A program made the position numbers and the translations under genes. DNA of 64,000 nucleotides, taken from a virus. Shown here one piece after another: positions 1-63,994 of the stretch. The notes under the pieces are model-generated. The model searched no databases, was not told the DNA's origin, and saw only the letters and a program-made list of their open reading frames with translations. The DNA is taken from positions 11,444 to 75,443 of IMG/VR virus record IMGVR_UViG_3300023174_007026. One strand, written 5' to 3'. The first letter of the stretch is position 1; every line of letters starts with the position of its first letter.

Positions 1-2113
1 TACAGAGCTGACACCTGTGTATCAAAATGCTGATACATTCAGAACAGACATCAACAGCATAGTTAACTTTGCTAGCAGTGTAATTACACCACCTTTGAGC
101 GCTGCTACACAAATTCTCAGCAGCAATGTATTCACTCAAATTGGTTTGAGGTTGCCATTGGCAGGTGGTACCATGACTGGATACATAACAGCCAATGCAG
201 ATCCTACTTCACCATTGCATACAGCTACCAAAGGATATGTTGACAGTGCTGATGCATTGCGTGTACCATTGAGTGGCGGTACTATGACAGGGTTCCTGTC
301 TGTAGCAGTTCCAATAAGATCTGTTGAAGTAGCAAATAAGCAATACGTTGACTCTTTGTTTGCTGCTAGTACAGCAGCTGCTGTTGAATTGATTCGTGGA
401 GCCAAAGCATCTAGATTTTTGTATGGATTTCCTTTTGAAGGTGGTGCAGTAAGTCAGGGAACTCGTGGCAAATTTTTCTATTTGGATGGTCTCAATCGCC
501 TGAGAATGAGCGGCAGAGATGGAAATTATGTAAATACAGGCAATTTTAATCCTCTGTTTGGTGGTGGTGGAACTGGTCAAGCATACAGTACAACATACAA
601 TGCATTTTTAAATACTATTGTTCCAATTCAGATGGAAACCAATGAATATGCAGTAAGTGCAGTTGGAATTGGTGCTGCTTCTTTCTTGATGACCAACAAA
701 GGTAACGTTTACAGTACAGGGCAGAATTCAATGAATCATCCTGAAGTTAGTATTGTATCAAATGGATTTCTAGGTATTAATAATACTACAACACCTTATT
801 TTGAAACATGGCAAAAAATTTCCAATTCTACTTTTGGTGGTGCATCTGCAATACAAATTGCAGCAACAGAAGTAACAGGAGGTTTTACAAGACCTCGTGG
901 TCAAGTTGCAGTAATTGATACCAATGGCAGAGGGTATGCATGGGGTTCAAATAACTTTAATCAAATTTTAGATGCAACTGTCGATGCTGTAGCATATCCT
1001 GCTGTTTTGAGTGGTGGCAGCTTGGGCCAAAATACATTGAAGCAGGTTTTACCTGCAAATTGTGCAATGTTTGTCATTGATTCCAGCAACAAAGTGCATG
1101 TTCGTGGCAATGGAATTACTAATACGACAGTTAATAATTGGGCAGGAGGTTTTCAGCCTGGACTTGACAATGGCAGCTCATATGCCAAATTTATGGCATT
1201 GAACAGCAACACCACAGGTGCTGTTACATTTAGTGCTTGTTATTTTACTCCATTGAATGGATCACCTATAATAGGTATGCAAGCAGATCGACTTTACATA
1301 AGTGGTGCTATTGGAGGTGGTTCCATTGGTGCATACAATGTAAGCAGTGAAAGAGCTACTGTTATTACCAATTATTCTGTGGCAACTACTTATGCACTTA
1401 CAGCAGGTAGAATTTGGGCCACTGGTTACAATTGGTATGGTCAGTGTGCACAGTTGACTCAAGGCAATACTTTATCTACTTTTAGACCTGTATTGTCTGC
1501 TGCTGGTGCGCCACTCATGGGCAATTTCAAAGCAATTTACCCCAGTTGGTCAGGAGGAGTTTTGGCAGTAGAAGATAATGGTCGTACATGGGGCTGGGGT
1601 TGGAGAAAAAACATTGGATTGCCAGGCTCTGGTACCTTTGTTACTTCTGCTAGCATTATACCATCTTTATCTGCTTATAACATCAAGAAAATTCTAAATG
1701 CAACTGCAAATATAAATGCTTCCAACCCTGCTGCTGTTGCTATTACTACAGATGGAAAGGTACTTGCAACTGGCAGCAATAAATTTGGTGCCAATGGTCA
1801 AGGAACAATTACATCAACAGGTGCAGGATCAAGTACATGGTTACAAGTTAATTTACCTACAGGTGTATCTGCAATTGATGTCAACTATAGTGCATTTTTG
1901 TATAGTACCTCAGATGATGGTGATGATGATTTAACTGTTACAAATGCACCAAGTATTTATTTACTGACAACTGACTCACCTGATAAAACACTGTATGATA
2001 TATACGCATTTGGAAGCAATGCAGGTTTTTCATTGGGAATAAATCAAATGACCAACGCAGCTGTTGGCAGCAACGCTGTATCTTTGCCTATCAAGGTATC
2101 AATTAATTTGTAA
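1..2113 (+). CDS. Tail fibre / receptor-binding protein with RCC1-like repeats (5' truncated by window edge)
   Basis: Frame open to window start; LPLAGGTMTG...ATKGYVD / VPLSGGTMTG...ANKQYVD fibre repeats followed by RCC1-like units (GNVYSTGQN, GYAWGSN, IWATGYNWYGQ, VLATGSNKFG); Ser/Thr/Gly rich. Confidence 0.75.
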   Translation, partial: TELTPVYQNADTFRTDINSIVNFASSVITPPLSAATQILSSNVFTQIGLRLPLAGGTMTGYITANADPTSPLHTATKGYVDSADALRVPLSGGTMTGFLSVAVPIRSVEVANKQYVDSLFAASTAAAVELIRGAKASRFLYGFPFEGGAVSQGTRGKFFYLDGLNRLRMSGRDGNYVNTGNFNPLFGGGGTGQAYSTTYNAFLNTIVPIQMETNEYAVSAVGIGAASFLMTNKGNVYSTGQNSMNHPEVSIVSNGFLGINNTTTPYFETWQKISNSTFGGASAIQIAATEVTGGFTRPRGQVAVIDTNGRGYAWGSNNFNQILDATVDAVAYPAVLSGGSLGQNTLKQVLPANCAMFVIDSSNKVHVRGNGITNTTVNNWAGGFQPGLDNGSSYAKFMALNSNTTGAVTFSACYFTPLNGSPIIGMQADRLYISGAIGGGSIGAYNVSSERATVITNYSVATTYALTAGRIWATGYNWYGQCAQLTQGNTLSTFRPVLSAAGAPLMGNFKAIYPSWSGGVLAVEDNGRTWGWGWRKNIGLPGSGTFVTSASIIPSLSAYNIKKILNATANINASNPAAVAITTDGKVLATGSNKFGANGQGTITSTGAGSSTWLQVNLPTGVSAIDVNYSAFLYSTSDDGDDDLTVTNAPSIYLLTTDSPDKTLYDIYAFGSNAGFSLGINQMTNAAVGSNAVSLPIKVSINL

Positions 2114-2378
2114 TTGTTGCTCTTGCATTCTCAAGTGCAATCTCGCATTTGAGATCGTACAACATAGAATGATATCTCTCTTTGATGTATTTGCCAAATG
2201 CAATGGGATTTACCCAATCTACTTCATCTGGATCCACTTGCATGTCTGTCATCTTCTGATCTACAACTGAAATTGCTTCTGCCAGACACATCCAGCGGGC
2301 CTTTTCTTCCATGGACATGTTGATGCTTTGACTAGTAGTGGACTTGACGGACTGTTTATTTTGATTTTTGTTTTTCAT
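2103..2378 (-). CDS. Hypothetical protein
   Basis: 91-aa ORF coupled to upstream minus-strand genes. Confidence 0.6.
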   Translation of the reverse strand: MKNKNQNKQSVKSTTSQSINMSMEEKARWMCLAEAISVVDQKMTDMQVDPDEVDWVNPIAFGKYIKERYHSMLYDLKCEIALENARATITN

Positions 2379-2796
2379 AGCCTGATGTTATATACCCTGA
2401 CATTATAGCCAAGATTTCAGGTTCTGACAACTGTTTCCCATGACTTGCAACGAAAAACTGCCATGCTGTTTGCAAAACTTTGAGCAAAAGTGTAGCTTTT
2501 TCATTGAATATTGGATCATTTTCTTTGCTTTTAATGCCTTCAATGATTGCTGCATACAGATTTTCAATGGACTGCGTTTTGCCATACAGTCTGCCAATGT
2601 TGAATGGAGTTTCTACGTTGTTGATTCTGGCCCACTGCATTAAATCATGTAAACTAGAATTAATTTGAGGTTCAGCAGCAGGCAATGGCTGCGTAATGGA
2701 ACTTGCAACAGTTGTTGCTGCATTGTATAAATGACTTTGTGTCACATCTATGTTGTGATTTATATTTTGCAGCTGATTGTATGGTGGATTATTCAT
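2356..2796 (-). CDS. Hypothetical protein
   Basis: 146-aa ORF overlapping neighbours in operon fashion. Confidence 0.65.
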   Translation of the reverse strand: MNNPPYNQLQNINHNIDVTQSHLYNAATTVASSITQPLPAAEPQINSSLHDLMQWARINNVETPFNIGRLYGKTQSIENLYAAIIEGIKSKENDPIFNEKATLLLKVLQTAWQFFVASHGKQLSEPEILAIMSGYITSGYEKQKSK

Positions 2797-3232
2797 TTAC
2801 TTTATTTTCAATGACTTTTTGCTGCATTTGCTGTACCAAGTCACTGTGAGATGCATCCAAATCAAGTATTTGTGTAGGTAAAATGGTGCTCACTGATACT
2901 TTGCAATTGATCAATTTGTCACACATGGCACAATTGTAATAGTTTTGTCTGTTGAAGAATAGTGGCACAGTTTGTTCAATGTTGCGCTCGCATGGACAAG
3001 CAAGCTTCATGGTTTGCTTGTTGATCTCAGTTATTCTATCATTTGCAATCTGCTCAAATTCCTTTTGGCTCCTGTATTGCAAATAGGTATTGAAAATGCC
3101 ACCAAGCACAAAGTGTAAAACAAGGGACAACCCAAAGCCTCCAGGGAATCCCAATGGTGAATTTAAAGTGCATAAACCGACAAAGGCACTAATTAATACA
3201 GTAACCACAATGGGCACTAACATACTTTTCAT
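2789..3232 (-). CDS. Membrane protein with C-terminal Zn-ribbon-like motif
   Basis: Two N-terminal hydrophobic segments; CPC...CxxC. Confidence 0.6.
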   Translation of the reverse strand: MKSMLVPIVVTVLISAFVGLCTLNSPLGFPGGFGLSLVLHFVLGGIFNTYLQYRSQKEFEQIANDRITEINKQTMKLACPCERNIEQTVPLFFNRQNYYNCAMCDKLINCKVSVSTILPTQILDLDASHSDLVQQMQQKVIENKVNE

Positions 3233-4138: not shown

Positions 4139-5158
4139 TTAGTTGATGGTCTTGAGCATAATCTCTGCTTGAAGACCTTTGGCACAATGTTGCTTGATAA
4201 AATTGTGTGAAATGCTGTTGATGCCGTATTTGAGCGCAACATCATTGAAATCTTTGCATACAGTACCAATGTTCTTGGGCCAGATGAAAACAGTTTCACC
4301 TGCATCAATGAGTTTTTGAGTCTTGAGCCTGCTGGCACTGTCTAGCCATTGCGAGTCAAGCACCCAAATAAAATTGTAAAATCCGCTGATGCTGTTGATC
4401 TGCATTTGCTGACGTGATGAATACAATTGCATGCTCTTTTCTTGGATGCCTGCTACAGCTATGCCATTTTTAACAAAGCAGCAGTCAATGGGCCCTTCAA
4501 ATACAAATACATCATTGCATGCACTATCAATGTTGTTGAAGTTGAAGATGGCTCGATCACCATGAATCTTGCTCATGTACTTGGGTCGTTCATCATTTGC
4601 TTCAACGCTGCGAGATTGATAATAAACTATCTTGCCAGATGCATCAAAAAAAGGTAAAATGAGCCTGCCTTTGTGAGTCTCATCTTTGAGACATGCATAC
4701 AGTGCAGTTGGTTTGTTGATTGCACTCATGAGACCACGAGATACAGCATAATTATAAACTTGCTGCACAGTCTTGTTGTCTTTGTAGAATTCAACTTGAT
4801 TGGACTGCATCAAATTGATGCACTCTCCTGGCAATGATGGCACTTGCACCTTTTCTTGCTGCTTGGGCGCACTGTTGATGTCAACAGTATCAAATGATTC
4901 ACTATCATTTTGAATCTCGTGTTTGGTCATACCAGACACTTGCAACAACCATTTGAGAGGCTTGCTGCTCCATCCACAATTGTGACAAAAGATGCTTTCT
5001 TTGTCAGGAATATAATACAGTCGCTTTTTGCGCAACCAACTCTTGCCTTCTCTACAAATAGGACAGGAGCCCTGATAGGTTTTTGTCAACCTATTATACT
5101 TGGGGGCTCCTGCGTATTGATAGAACTTGGTAACTATGTAATGTTGAGGCAATTGCAC
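4139..5158 (-). CDS. DNA primase (T4 gp61-like)
   Basis: CPIC...CHNC zinc finger; TOPRIM EGPID and LD motifs; KDFND. Confidence 0.92.
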   Translation of the reverse strand: MQLPQHYIVTKFYQYAGAPKYNRLTKTYQGSCPICREGKSWLRKKRLYYIPDKESIFCHNCGWSSKPLKWLLQVSGMTKHEIQNDSESFDTVDINSAPKQQEKVQVPSLPGECINLMQSNQVEFYKDNKTVQQVYNYAVSRGLMSAINKPTALYACLKDETHKGRLILPFFDASGKIVYYQSRSVEANDERPKYMSKIHGDRAIFNFNNIDSACNDVFVFEGPIDCCFVKNGIAVAGIQEKSMQLYSSRQQMQINSISGFYNFIWVLDSQWLDSASRLKTQKLIDAGETVFIWPKNIGTVCKDFNDVALKYGINSISHNFIKQHCAKGLQAEIMLKTIN

Positions 5159-11438: not shown

Positions 11439-12761
11439 TCAATGAGACAGCATGCGTAATGAGTTTGCAGCATCTTCAGAATCTTGAGTCATGCTGTTGA
11501 GTTGTTCATCTTCACTCAATGTCAATGTAGAATAGTCAATCTTGAATGCATTGCTTCCAGAGTTGATGCCAAAGCGATTTTTGAGCAATGATGCGCGCAT
11601 GATGCCCAGTTCTTTGTCACCATCTCCCTGCCACAAACTTCCTACAAAGTCAGATGTAGCACCCAACGCATAACTTTCACTGACAGTTGTCAAGTCTGGC
11701 TCATTGACATTGGTACCACTTCTGTTGGTTTGAGTAACAGTAACCAATGGGCAGTTGAATGCATAAGTCATTGCTCGGGTTTCTTCTGCAATGTATTTGA
11801 TGCGTTCATAACTGTTGTTGCCTTTGGTAGTAGTCAACAGATTCAAGTAATCCAACACAATCAAATCAATCTTGATGTTGCGCTTTTGCAATTTGCGCAA
11901 GTATACTTCCAAGGCTCTGGGAGTCATGGTGCTTGGAGGAAACTCTTTGATGAATACTTTGCAATTGCTGTTGAATTCTTTGAGGTTATCCATTTGAGCA
12001 CGCACAATGTCAATGTCTTTGGCAAGAGAATTGATGCCTATTTTAGTCAAGTTGGCAGTCAGCCGTTTGGCATACATGGTCTCAGACATTTCAAGTGAGA
12101 TGACTACTACATTCTTGCCTTGCAGTGCCACATTGCAAGCAATGTTGCCAAGAATGATGCTTTTGCCAATGTTGGTTTGACCTGCAAACACATACATGGC
12201 GCGGCCATTTCTTTGCAACCCTCCTCCCAGCTTTTCATCCAGCCACTTGAAGCCAGTGGGTATAGTTGGCTCTGGATTCATTAACTCTTGCTCAACTTTG
12301 CTGAAGTCTTTGAGTAGATCCAATCCTAAATCTGGAATCAAACTCACATTGCATGATTTTTCAAACTTGTCAAGAATCAAACTGGTATCAATGTTGCCAG
12401 CTCCAACATCTTGAGCTACAGCCATCATTGCTTCATAGATGCCTCGCTCTTTCAAAAACCGTTCTGTATTTTCATATAATTCTTCTCTGTTGAGAGCTTT
12501 GTCAATACTGGAAATGCTGTTGACTGCATTTTTAAACTTCTGTTTGTCAGCATCTGTTGACAAATAACTTTTGATTTCAGTAGTTGTTGGAATGCTTTTG
12601 CGTTTTTCATAAAAGCTGCACACAATCTCAAATACAAGTCTCAAGTTTGCATCTGAAAAGTATGATGGCTTGACATAATCAATGACACTTGCCAAGTACT
12701 CATCATCTGTAATGCTTTTGAAAGCAATTACCTTTTCCATCCAATCTAAGTCCAATTTCAT
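11439..12761 (-). CDS. Replicative DnaB-like helicase (T4 gp41-like)
   Basis: Walker A GQTNIGKS, SLEMSE, IVLDYLNLL, TQTNR, LKNRFG. Confidence 0.95.
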   Translation of the reverse strand: MKLDLDWMEKVIAFKSITDDEYLASVIDYVKPSYFSDANLRLVFEIVCSFYEKRKSIPTTTEIKSYLSTDADKQKFKNAVNSISSIDKALNREELYENTERFLKERGIYEAMMAVAQDVGAGNIDTSLILDKFEKSCNVSLIPDLGLDLLKDFSKVEQELMNPEPTIPTGFKWLDEKLGGGLQRNGRAMYVFAGQTNIGKSIILGNIACNVALQGKNVVVISLEMSETMYAKRLTANLTKIGINSLAKDIDIVRAQMDNLKEFNSNCKVFIKEFPPSTMTPRALEVYLRKLQKRNIKIDLIVLDYLNLLTTTKGNNSYERIKYIAEETRAMTYAFNCPLVTVTQTNRSGTNVNEPDLTTVSESYALGATSDFVGSLWQGDGDKELGIMRASLLKNRFGINSGSNAFKIDYSTLTLSEDEQLNSMTQDSEDAANSLRMLSH

Positions 12762-62542: not shown

Positions 62543-63292
62543 ATGAACTATTTACGAATATATGAAAATCTTGTGTCATTTCGACAACAGCATTCTGCAA
62601 AAGGTTACACAGAAAAACATCACATCGTGATGAGATCGCTTGGTGGATCTGATGATCCATCTAATCTCGTTAGATTGACAGGTAGAGAGCATTGGATTGC
62701 TCATCTTTTACTCCATAAAATCTATCATAAACCACAGACTGCTTATGCATGTCATATGATGGCTATGAAATGTGAAGAACGCGGTGTACCATACATTCGC
62801 AATAGTAGAATGTATGAAGAGATACGAAAAGAATGTGCAAAGCTTGCAAGCACAAGAATGAGAAGCTTGCAAAAAGGCAGTAAAAATTCTCAATTTGGAA
62901 CAATGTGGATTTGCAATTTAAATACGAAAGAAAATCGTAAAATTGCAAGAAATTTTCCTATACCTGAAGGATGGGTTTTAGGGCGCAATAAGTGGAAACA
63001 AAAGTATTTAAACAAAACAAAATTTGGTTCTGAAGAACATAAACAACGTGCGTCTGCAGGACAACTAGGCAAAAACCTAAGTTTTGAAACAAAACAAAAA
63101 ATATCAAAAGCCAATAAAAATTCGCTTTTGGGCAATAAGTCACTTTCAGGTAGGGTTTGGATTAACAATGGCCTAATTAATAAAGCTATTATTAAAACAG
63201 AAATAATACCAGAAGGTTTTGTAAAAGGAAAAATTTCGCGTCATAAGTGTTATGTCAGCACGCCGGTCTTCCAATCCGGGAGTGTGAGTTAG
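62543..63292 (+). CDS. HNH homing endonuclease
   Basis: EKHHI..RSLGGSD..SNLV.LT.REH..AH.LL; WI.N, PEG..G repeats; TATAAATA upstream. Confidence 0.9.
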   Translation: MNYLRIYENLVSFRQQHSAKGYTEKHHIVMRSLGGSDDPSNLVRLTGREHWIAHLLLHKIYHKPQTAYACHMMAMKCEERGVPYIRNSRMYEEIRKECAKLASTRMRSLQKGSKNSQFGTMWICNLNTKENRKIARNFPIPEGWVLGRNKWKQKYLNKTKFGSEEHKQRASAGQLGKNLSFETKQKISKANKNSLLGNKSLSGRVWINNGLINKAIIKTEIIPEGFVKGKISRHKCYVSTPVFQSGSVS

Positions 63293-63311
63293 ATTCTCAC
63301 ATGGCGCACCA
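63238..63311 (+). tRNA. tRNA-Gly(TCC)
   Basis: Acceptor GCGTCAT/ATGGCGC, loop CTTCCAA, T arm GTGAG-TTAGATT-CTCAC, encoded CCA. Confidence 0.8.
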
Positions 63312-63319
63312 ATTTCAAA

Positions 63320-63395
63320 CGTCCATTGGCAGAGTAGCTATTGCACTTGTTTTGGGAACAAGTATTCGTCGGTGCAAGTCCGGCATGGGCGACCA
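63320..63395 (+). tRNA. tRNA-Pro(TGG)
   Basis: Acceptor CGTCCAT/ATGGGCG, CTTGT-TTTGGGA-ACAAG, T arm GTCGG-TGCAAGT-CCGGC, ACCA. Confidence 0.88.
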
Positions 63396-63403
63396 ATTTA
63401 CAA

Positions 63404-63617
63404 CAAAGGAAGTTGGCTTAGAAGCAGCCATCTATAATGAGTGAAGCGAAGTACGAGTCTCCGACATCAACGGCCTAGTAAGGTGACTGTGATAATGCAT
63501 GATGTATCAGAGTCAGATATTGGCTCATGCGTTGGATATCGTCTGACTGCGGATAGTAAAAGGGCACCCCGTAAATGGTAAGGCTTGATTCTTCTTGGGC
63601 GTAGCAGCACACCTTTG
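63404..63617 (+). ncRNA. Structured RNA containing a 23S rRNA H43/H44 (uL11-binding, GTPase-associated centre) mimic
   Basis: AGGAAGTTGGCTTAGAAGCAGCCATC (63407-63432) and GCGTAGCAGCACAC (63599-63612) match the two halves of 23S nt ~1054-1104; closed by CAAAGG/CCTTTG. Confidence 0.8.
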
Positions 63618-63632
63618 ATGTAATTAATTTAT

Positions 63633-63723
63633 GGAGAGTTAACTAGACGAGGCGCTAGGGATGTTTGCTAAACATCACGCACTTCTCACGAGGTGTGCGG
63701 GGCAGGACCGCAGCTCTCCTCCA
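63633..63723 (+). tRNA. tRNA-Ser(GCT)
   Basis: Acceptor GGAGAGT/GCTCTCC, GATGT-TTGCTAA-ACATC, long variable arm, T arm TGCGG-GGCAGGA-CCGCA, CCA. Confidence 0.85.
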
Positions 63724-63726
63724 TTT

Positions 63727-63806
63727 TTGTAGAACAGCAATGTTAGTGTGCGGCCGAAAGACTGATGGTGTGGCGTTTCGGGTAAAACCTCGCGACCATC
63801 CTACAA
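63727..63806 (+). ncRNA. Candidate ~80-nt four-way-junction RNA
   Basis: TTGTAG/CTACAA closing stem; GNRA hairpins (GCAA, GAAA); ATGGT/ACCAT arm. Confidence 0.45.
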
Positions 63807-63819
63807 TTCAATTTTTATT

Positions 63820-63896
63820 CGGGTGGTGTCTGGACAAGTAAACGAACTCGGTTTGGATCCGAGTATATGTGGGAGCGTTACCCACTCACCCGACCA
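63820..63896 (+). tRNA. tRNA-Pro(TGG), second divergent copy
   Basis: Acceptor CGGGTGG/TCACCCG, CTCGG-TTTGGAT-CCGAG, T arm GTGGG-AGCGTTA-CCCAC, ACCA. Confidence 0.75.
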
Positions 63897-63905
63897 ATTT
63901 CAAAA

Positions 63906-63994
63906 TCCCCCTTAGCTCAGTGGTAGAGCGCTTGGCTGTTAACCAGGAGGCCCTTGTAAGGTACAGCGACGATCGTAACGTCGAGGGGGAGCCA
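63906..63994 (+). tRNA. tRNA-Asn(GTT) with long variable region
   Basis: Acceptor TCCCCCT/AGGGGGA, canonical D arm, CTTGG-CTGTTAA-CCAGG, T arm CGACG-ATCGTAA-CGTCG, GCCA. Confidence 0.8.

Follow-up and report, generated by a model that had tools for sequence, protein, structure and literature searches.

A phage tRNA cluster encodes a member of a widespread RNA family resembling the uL11-binding domain of 23S rRNA

The sequence considered here, called the window, is a stretch of 64,000 nucleotides (nt) from the virus record IMGVR_UViG_3300023174_007026 (positions 11,444 to 75,443). It corresponds to the last 64 kb of a 75,443-bp contig with a CheckV completeness of 36%, which ends inside a tRNA array. 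Within this tRNA gene cluster of a large uncultured phage lies a self-closed RNA element of 228 nt, whose parts are listed in Table 1 together with the adjacent tRNA genes. From 5' to 3', this element comprises a closing helix, the equivalent of helix 43 (H43), a junction, an inserted arm of 152 nt and the equivalent of helix 44 (H44) of the GTPase-associated centre (GAC) of 23S rRNA. A first-pass annotation, made from the letters of the window alone, had described it as a selected, stand-alone mimic of the ribosomal uL11 domain. The comparative analysis presented below agrees with this description: the same layout is found in more than 200 IMG/VR phage contigs as well as in cultured phages, and both the helices and a tertiary base triple covary.

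Table 1. Positions in the window of the RNA element, of its parts and of the neighbouring tRNA and tRNA-like genes. Further reference points in E. coli 23S numbering are G1059 (63412), C1079 (63432), G1087 (63439), U1090 (63442), G1091 (63599) and C1102 (63610).
Feature	Position	Strand	Remarks
tRNA-Gly	63238-63311		ARAGORN/Rfam
tRNA-Pro(UGG)	63320..63395	+	ARAGORN; Rfam tRNA 50.4 bits; CCA end 2 nt upstream of the closing helix
Whole RNA element	63397..63624	+	Full-length match to covariance model R1 (model positions 1-142 of 142)
Closing helix, 5' strand	63398..63409	+	Pairs with 63612-63623; stands where the top of helix 42 (H42) would be
H43 equivalent (A1057-U1080), AAGUUGGCUUAGAAGCAGCCAUCU	63410..63433	+	25/26 identity to E. 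coli
H43 loop UUAGAAGCA	63418-63426	+	A1067 = 63420
Junction AUAAU-GAGU	63434..63442	+	A1082-U1086 pair, then G1087, A1088, G1089, U1090
Inserted arm, 152 nt	63443..63594	+	Between U1090 and G1091; base helix covaries in the family
Conserved 3' module of the insert, GGAUAGUA..GG-CAC-CCG[UAAA]UGG-UAAGG-CU	63551..63590	+	Hairpin 63563-63585
Linker UUGG (family consensus UUUG)	63595..63598	+	Joins insert to H44; UUUG in 97/117 members
H44 hairpin GCGUAGCAGC (G1091-C1100), then A1101, C1102, A1103	63599..63611	+	A1095 = 63603; 1092:1099 covaries
Closing helix, 3' strand	63612..63623	+	Partner of 63398..63409
tRNA-Ser(GCU)-like gene	63633..63723	+	9 nt 3' of the closing helix; by-eye reading
Odd tRNA-Asn	63906-63994		ARAGORN/Rfam

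From tRNA-Pro to the following tRNA-like gene, the sequence is as the annotation had reported. The motif AUAAUGAGU comes after the H43 segment and before the insert, whose length had been given as about 150 nt. The CAAAGG/CCTTTG closure is present as well and forms the inner segments of the closing helix (CAAAGG 63404-63409 with CCUUUG 63612-63617). This helix is longer than proposed, since it extends over both strands given in Table 1, with 11 of its 12 pairs formed and one A.A mismatch. The H43 half was compared with the real E. coli-type 23S gene of another IMG/VR locus (L081) and the expected 25 identical nt out of 26 were recovered. Both hairpins are present, H43 with its 1065-1073 loop and H44 with its 1093-1098 loop, and the A1067 loop and the 1095-type loop are both kept. 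A 21-mer shared exactly with rRNA far exceeds the chance expectation for a 64-kb window. In agreement with the claim that no other rRNA flanks the element, Rfam 15 returned only tRNAs on the window, at the gathering score and at E <=10. The local large subunit (LSU) rRNA match that had been anticipated was absent, and the element is not a segment of an LSU rRNA gene. The secondary structure of the element alone has a minimum free energy no more stable than that of shuffled sequences (z = -0.97); the structural evidence is therefore comparative, not thermodynamic.

The exact 21-mer, GUUGGCUUAGAAGCAGCCAUC, was found at 94 IMG/VR loci, of which only two (L069 and L081) are real 23S genes, the remainder having the layout of the window. 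Two further IMG/VR pattern scans, one leaving the H43 loop free and the other the H43 stem, gave at least 118 loci each, and the same number of real 23S genes, two, is all that appears among the loci listed by the three scans. The family layout consists of a private closing helix of 8-12 bp, H43, the segment N-UUUAAAGAGU, a helix carrying the insert, UUUG, the H44 sequence GCGUAAUAGC, ACAC and the 3' strand of the closing helix. The window departs from this layout by the deletion of position 1081, common to its clade, and by UUGG in place of UUUG, like its close relatives L017 and L025. A covariance model of 142 positions, named R1, was built from 15 other phage members with the window excluded. 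R1 recognizes the window element at 77.9 bits (E 2.4e-22), as a single copy in the whole 75-kb record, and gives 95 matches in 100 other loci. Real 23S controls stand in contrast, as they match R1 over 74 nt only, with 42-56 bits.

This family extends to well-known cultured phages, where it lies in unannotated gaps: R1 scores 91.3 bits in Pseudomonas pf16 (between tRNA-Asn and tRNA-Pro), 85.5 bits in Xanthomonas XacN1 (locus L359, 830-1734, directly after the open reading frame (ORF) of a 2'-5' RNA ligase), 82.3 bits in Aeromonas 4_4572 and 78.6 bits in Cronobacter GAP32. A weak and partial match of 31.8 bits was obtained in Acinetobacter ME3. The complete pf16, XacN1, 4_4572 and GAP32 genomes hold one copy each, and the XacN1 and GAP32 copies stand between protein genes. 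These copies map to KU873925 29410-29610 (-) in pf16, AP018399 150352-150595 (-) in XacN1, MK813943 75075-75370 (+) in 4_4572 and JN882285 289509-289764 (+) in GAP32. Further carriers are suggested by BLAST, namely Ralstonia RSP15, Vibrio 2.275.O, Serratia BF, the Erwinia pEa_SNUABM phages, Pectobacterium CBB and Yersinia fHe-Yen9-04, provided that a 42-nt core is used as query at E <=10; a blastn search of GenBank phages with 510 nt at E 1e-5 gave no match. Among large lytic phages, T4-like as well as jumbo, the family is widespread. Among 151 sampled gammaproteobacterial genomes, no insert-bearing R1 match was found at E <=1e-15.

Several single loci deserve mention. Paenibacillus phage Pd_22F was considered as a carrier and rejected, the match being a real 23S gene in that record. 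Its record (MZ092003, locus L361) contains at 393-3032 a near-full-length bacterial 23S gene in an unannotated gap (Rfam LSU, 2618 bits), explained either by host DNA that entered the assembly or by the flank of a prophage. One phage contig, L167, holds two family members about 1 kb apart (1115-1237 and 2170-2366), against a single copy in every complete cultured genome checked. Finally, L201 carries at 4350-4421, on the minus strand, a 72-nt GAC copy devoid of insert, closed by its own stem and retaining the rRNA-like H42 flanks GACAACUAGG...CUCACUAGUC. It lies between an ORF called MazG-like by eye and a GIY-YIG ORF, in a locus without rRNA or tRNA. This copy may be a recent capture of rDNA; it hints at an origin of the family by such a capture and at the possibility of keeping the GAC part alone.

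Strong support for the fold comes from covariation. Alignment A1 was produced with MAFFT from the window and 38 diverse members (39 rows). Standard pairs are formed by 95.1% of its cells as compared with 66.2% in shuffles, none of the 500 shuffles reaching the observed value, and pairing drops to 36-59% when the 3' partners are slid by 1-3 columns. Twenty of the 24 pairs vary on both sides; among these are all ten pairs of the closing helix, the four with which the insert opens, and the pairs 1058:1080 and 1082:1086. A lack of covariation among homologs, which would have spoken against the first-pass annotation, is not what is seen. In the closing helix, all ten positions change on both sides across the family and 93% of the cells pair. 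The change of U1058 to A accompanied by A1080 to U, suspected of being compensatory in the window, is indeed so at the family level, where position 1058:1080 exists as four pair types (U:A 36, A:U 22, G:C 17, C:G 3). Four types are likewise found at 1082:1086 (U:A 34, C:G 27, A:U 11, G:C 2).

The covariation reaches the tertiary structure. In real rRNA, G1071 sits on the G1091-C1100 pair and C1072 on C1092-G1099 (PMC8614978, PMC2952862). In the phage family, the triple 1072/(1092:1099) covaries, being C/C:G in 98 distinct members and U/U:A in 12, with 3 exceptions. In A1 the corresponding counts are 35 and 4 without any exception; the model-based alignment A3 gives 53 and 10, with 2 exceptions. 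The 13 members with U1072 have diverse closing helices, loops, 1058:1080 pairs and insert lengths (63-306 nt), which shows that they do not derive from one recent clone. G1071, which belongs to the other triple, is conserved in 98% of members. U1060 and A1088, which contact each other in the GAC, are invariant in 85 of 85 rows; G1087, G1089 and U1090 are 98-100% conserved and each position of the UUUG linker about 90-97%. The contacts U1060-A1088, 1082:1086, G1071/(G1091:C1100) and 1072/(1092:1099) appear all to be preserved, by invariance or by covariation. Since helices and tertiary triple covary while U1060 and A1088 do not change, the phage RNA very probably adopts the genuine tertiary fold of the GAC.

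The bases exposed by this fold are less uniformly kept. The composition of the H43 loop was taken from the scan in which the loop was free; the H44 positions were unconstrained in all scans. In the H43 loop, U1066, G1071 and A1073 are about 100% conserved, 1065 is U or C, 1068 is G or A and 1070 is A or G. Position 1067 is A in about 68% of distinct members, G in 29% and C in 3%. In the H44 loop, U1094 (99%), A1095 (94%) and A1098 (100%) are highly conserved, 1096 is A or G and 1097 is U, C or A. Outside the loops, position 1061 varies between U, A, G and C. The same position is variable among real rRNAs, in which a U1061A change stabilizes the GAC fold. A1067 is the exposed adenine contacted by thiostrepton, EF-G and the tRNA elbow; judging from the alignments, the fold is kept more strictly than this base.

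The inserted arm ranges from 48 to 492 nt across the family, with a median of 144. Its exit is at the same point in every case and passes through a covarying helix, the four base pairs of which change on both sides; in the window this helix is formed by GAAG 63443-63446 and CUUC 63591-63594, as the annotation had predicted. Two others of the five pairings put forward fared less well. CGAGUC/GGCUUG clashes with the hairpin of a conserved module, and UCCG/CGGA is contradicted by the G63463->A substitution of L017, which fits a pairing with U63533 instead. The notion of a variable insert stands for the lengths and for the sequences, which are mostly unrelated between lineages; it fails for a 3' module conserved in about one quarter of the members. 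This module, RAGUR-N4-NN-CAC-CCR-[GNRA or UAAN]-YGG-UAAGG-NN-N4, is gap-free in 17 distinct members, window included, and adjoins the 3' strand of the insert helix. Its tetraloops, GNRA or UAAN, are GNRA-like, its outer pair and its loop-closing pair covary, and GAAGUAC is the start of the insert in many of the members that possess it. In L017, G63563, which faces U63585, is changed to A. The central fold of the insert is predicted from a constrained folding; L017 and L025 have four substitutions at insert positions paired in it, three of which are compatible with pairing. The possibility that the insert copies another part of rRNA, such as the sarcin-ricin loop, was rejected at the sequence level: blastn-short gave only noise, and the best nhmmer match of the 3' module to 120 rRNA loci had an E-value of 1.7, without similarity.

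The position of the arm depends on the choice of the reference. A pattern scan of bacterial genomes, uninformative on prophages, returned 121 matches, all true 23S genes, from which the majority bacterial GAC reads ...AAAGAGU, GCGUAAUAGC, UCAC. This majority form is a better reference for the element than the GAAAGCG variant of E. coli, and it places the insert exactly between U1090 and G1091. Relative to the common bacterial GAC, the phage RNA then differs by three changes, namely the arm at U1090/G1091, the replacement of U1101 by A (in about 98% of the family) and the replacement of H42. The GAGU sequence is carried by gammaproteobacterial phages, as opposed to GAAA in the E. coli-type 23S of L081. 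GAAA is the general pattern of the 23S of gammaproteobacterial hosts. This discordance between phages and hosts argues for one old family rather than for repeated, host-by-host capture. Taken as a whole, the phage RNA shares with the 23S GAC the sequences of H43 and H44, the 1082:1086 and U1060-A1088 pairs, both base triples and the variability at 1061 and 1058:1080. It differs in residing outside rRNA, with a private covarying helix that joins its own ends instead of H42, in the arm followed by its UUUG linker, in the A at 1101, in an extra A before 1058 in most members (the clade of the window lacks 1081 instead) and in the absence of an invariant A1067.

The genomic surroundings were analysed as well. 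In the first 95 loci, all 509 tRNAs are co-oriented with the element, a tRNA is found within 2 kb in 65, leaving about a third without one, and a same-strand tRNA ends no more than 40 nt upstream of G1059 in 19. The window follows this family trait, its element being inside the phage tRNA array and on the same strand. No constant protein partner emerged when 1664 neighbouring ORFs were clustered, the largest families reaching at most 13 of some 228 loci. Proteins that recur near the element are HNH endonucleases, a CCA-adding enzyme, a metallophosphoesterase and a polynucleotide-kinase-like AAA_33/KTI12-type kinase, which places it in the region of large phages devoted to tRNAs and RNA repair. 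No uL11, bL12 or Ro60 domain is encoded in the five cultured phage genomes that were searched; any protein ligand should consequently be encoded by the host or be an unrecognized phage protein.

The best explanation of the element is that it encodes a stable non-coding RNA, about 228 nt long. This RNA would be transcribed together with the phage tRNA array and released by the tRNA-maturing enzymes that act on its neighbours, a reasonable inference given the immediate vicinity of the closing helix to the CCA of tRNA-Pro on one side and to the serine-like gene on the other (2 and 9 nt). As the comparative analysis shows, the long closing helix, in the place of H42, carries H43 and H44 docked by the tertiary contacts of 23S rRNA (U1060-A1088, a pair of the U1082-A1086 type, G1071 on G1091-C1100 and 1072 on 1092-1099), the extra structured arm leaving H44 between U1090 and G1091. 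Such an RNA offers, off the ribosome, the minimal uL11-binding domain (E. coli 1051-1108), which in rRNA measures 58 nt and also binds thiostrepton, and could act in trans as a molecular mimic recognized by some normal ligand of the ribosomal GAC. As far as sequence comparison can tell, phages seem to imitate the uL11-binding site of the ribosome away from the ribosome.

Among the possible ligands, host uL11 is tentatively regarded as the likeliest. This universal protein binds the isolated GAC domain alone, and its binding requires the fold but not A1067. The preference for uL11 follows from these properties, from the fact that the copied segment is precisely its minimal domain and from the lack of a uL11 gene in the carriers searched. 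It is preferred over translation factors or thiopeptides because the bases that determine the fold are near-invariant while A1067, 1096 and 1097 vary; the variation at A1067 somewhat weakens the readings based on thiopeptides and on factor contacts. An RNA-uL11 particle would withdraw free uL11 and weaken the uL11-dependent activation of RelA, or else act as a protected platform. A bolder version, which is possible but more doubtful, is that of an abundant free "mini stalk base", a correctly folded GAC RNA loaded with host uL11, which large phages would use off the ribosome as a general counter-measure across many hosts. It would blind stress or defence sensing that depends on uL11 and the GAC (alarmone synthesis of the RelA type, GAC-directed toxins), or dock translation factors for the phage. 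If true, it would be the first case of a virus imitating a functional centre of rRNA, and a new class of anti-host RNA. Several points weigh against uL11 as the ligand. This protein is stably bound to the ribosome, so that a sponge could mainly catch newly made molecules, and the benefit of such a sponge to a lytic phage is not clear. The family contains changes foreign to rRNA, namely the insert, the UUUG linker, A1101 and, in most members, the extra A before 1058. The module conserved in a quarter of the inserts indicates that part of the function may lie outside the GAC. The conservation of A1095 and A1098 also fits ligands that read the H44 loop.

This last observation leads to the main rival of the uL11 proposal, in which the RNA would act as a decoy or sponge against GAC-attacking weapons of the host or of competitors (ADP-ribosyltransferase, nuclease, methyltransferase or thiopeptide), titrating the effector and sparing the ribosomes, much as phage tRNAs blunt tRNA-targeting defences. 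Although unlikely in comparison, it has a precedent in the toxin Tre23, which ADP-ribosylates 23S rRNA within 1095-1098 of H44 and blocks the GTPase activity of EF-G (PMC8661411), and the conservation of U1094, A1095 and A1098 (94-100%) would suit it. The neighbourhood would suit it too: the tRNA and RNA-repair module of large phages is the type of region that can hold counter-measures to translation-targeting defences, such as the virally encoded tRNA reported to neutralize the PARIS defence (PMC11464382). On the other hand, the literature search turned up no anti-phage defence system directed at the GAC, ribosomes already hit are not repairable by a decoy, and the variation of 1096, 1097 and A1067 would be surprising if the RNA strictly imitated what a loop-reading enzyme or thiostrepton recognizes.

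The insert suggests another, improbable, explanation: the GAC fold, probably clamped by uL11, would merely be a stable and nuclease-resistant scaffold for an arm working as an aptamer, a protein site or an antisense RNA. The wide range of lengths, the unrelated sequences, the constant exit point through a covarying helix and the module with its GNRA-like tetraloop in 17 distinct members could all be accounted for in this way. The compact insert-less copy of L201 could not, the inserts have no motif common to the whole family, and the GAC part is conserved to single loop bases, far beyond the needs of a scaffold.

The RNA might also be an off-ribosome dock for a translational GTPase or a stringent factor (EF-G, EF-Tu, IF2, RF3, RelA), which would be sequestered or presented to phage proteins. 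The GAC is after all the factor-binding site of the ribosome, and in vitro EF-G shows weak binding to isolated GAC oligonucleotides. Interference of phages with the stalk is also known, for instance through phage-encoded L7/L12 domains (bioRxiv 10.1101/174177). This explanation is rather implausible, as A1067, a main contact with the factors and the tRNA elbow, is G or C in about one third of the members, and as the main sources of affinity, the sarcin-ricin loop and the L10/L12 stalk, are absent, the insert having no similarity to rRNA. Very unlikely is a cis-acting role in the processing or folding of the tRNA precursor, such as an RNase entry or stop site, with no function in trans: the tight spacing in the window and the common strand of the nearby tRNAs would fit it, but about a third of the loci have no tRNA within 2 kb, the XacN1 and GAP32 copies stand between protein genes, and copying an rRNA domain down to its tertiary structure would be superfluous for a processing signal. 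A functionless captured rRNA fragment, pseudogene or assembly chimera, which the H42 flanks of L201 could have evoked by suggesting that the family began with rDNA capture, is excluded by the comparative data, that is by more than 200 independent contigs and complete cultured genomes, by the covariation of helices and tertiary triple, by the family-specific closing helix and by the absence of flanking rRNA.

Three known systems can be compared with the proposed uL11-binding mimic. The leaders of ribosomal protein operons (L10, L1, L20, S8, S15) are also RNAs that imitate, off the ribosome, the rRNA site of a ribosomal protein. They are cis-regulatory, located in cellular mRNAs upstream of the gene of the bound protein, and they usually copy a local motif only, whereas the phage element is free-standing in a tRNA array, copies a whole tertiary domain and has no ribosomal protein gene nearby; its neighbours in the window are tRNAs and an HNH-like ORF, and no Rfam leader matched. 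The tRNAs and other small RNAs of phage tRNA clusters, such as the stable "species 1/2" RNAs of T4, resemble it by genomic place, strand, likely release by tRNA-processing enzymes and likely high abundance, and also because they imitate or duplicate part of the host translation apparatus. The element differs in that it is neither a tRNA nor tRNA-like and cannot replace the rRNA part that it copies. Lastly, bacterial and phage Y RNAs are partners of Ro60/Rsr that bear a tRNA-like module (PMC4201824). Both are modular non-coding RNAs whose ends form a long stem and which carry a mimic of a translation RNA. The closing helix of the phage element varies in sequence and lacks a conserved Ro-binding motif, and no TROVE gene was found in the five cultured phage genomes, nor any TROVE domain in the 36%-complete record.

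No description of the family could be found in the databases and the literature as searched, and it is unannotated even in well-known cultured phages. No Rfam 15 family matches the element, even at E <=10, and full-text searches by mimicry and GAC terms or by sequence were equally negative. The available part of a survey of structured RNAs in IMG/VR (PMC10690425) mentions no rRNA-like motif; the family may be among its 8,495 unnamed candidates. Known cases of mimicry concern rRNA imitated by cellular mRNA leaders, and tRNA imitated by viruses and Y RNAs; no account was found of a viral RNA that stands alone and copies an entire tertiary domain from the factor-binding centre of the ribosome. 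If this RNA binds uL11 or a GAC-directed effector, it would open a new chapter in the conflict between phages and hosts over the ribosome, and would provide a natural GAC scaffold of high stability with a site that tolerates insertion. Direct testing is possible with the cultured carriers, pf16 on P. putida PpG1, GAP32 on Cronobacter sakazakii, XacN1 on Xanthomonas citri and 4_4572 on Aeromonas hydrophila.

The tRNA array around the element is itself unusual. Of the two flanking genes named by the annotation, tRNA-Pro is confirmed by both ARAGORN and Rfam; the tRNA-Ser is called neither by ARAGORN nor by the Rfam tRNA model (E <=10), and is only tRNA-Ser(GCU)-like by eye: the acceptor stem has 7 bp, the anticodon loop carries GCU, the variable arm is long, CCA is encoded and the T loop is non-canonical. 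A second tRNA-like gene at 63820-63896, also uncalled, has a UGG anticodon loop that would duplicate the anticodon of tRNA-Pro and a T loop AGCGUUA; about 95 nt without explanation (63724-63819) separate it from the serine-like gene. Aberrant T loops are found in the called tRNAs of 63238-63994 as well (UUAGAUU in tRNA-Gly, UGCAAGU in tRNA-Pro), and tRNA-Asn has 30 nt in place of the 15-nt core of the T arm. Upstream, a 249-aa ORF (62543-63292) runs into tRNA-Gly; it displays an H-N-H-type motif by eye, with no Pfam match at 1e-3, and is probably a free-standing homing endonuclease bordering the tRNA array. Throughout 63238-63994, the spacer CCAAUUU(C/A)A stands after each tRNA.

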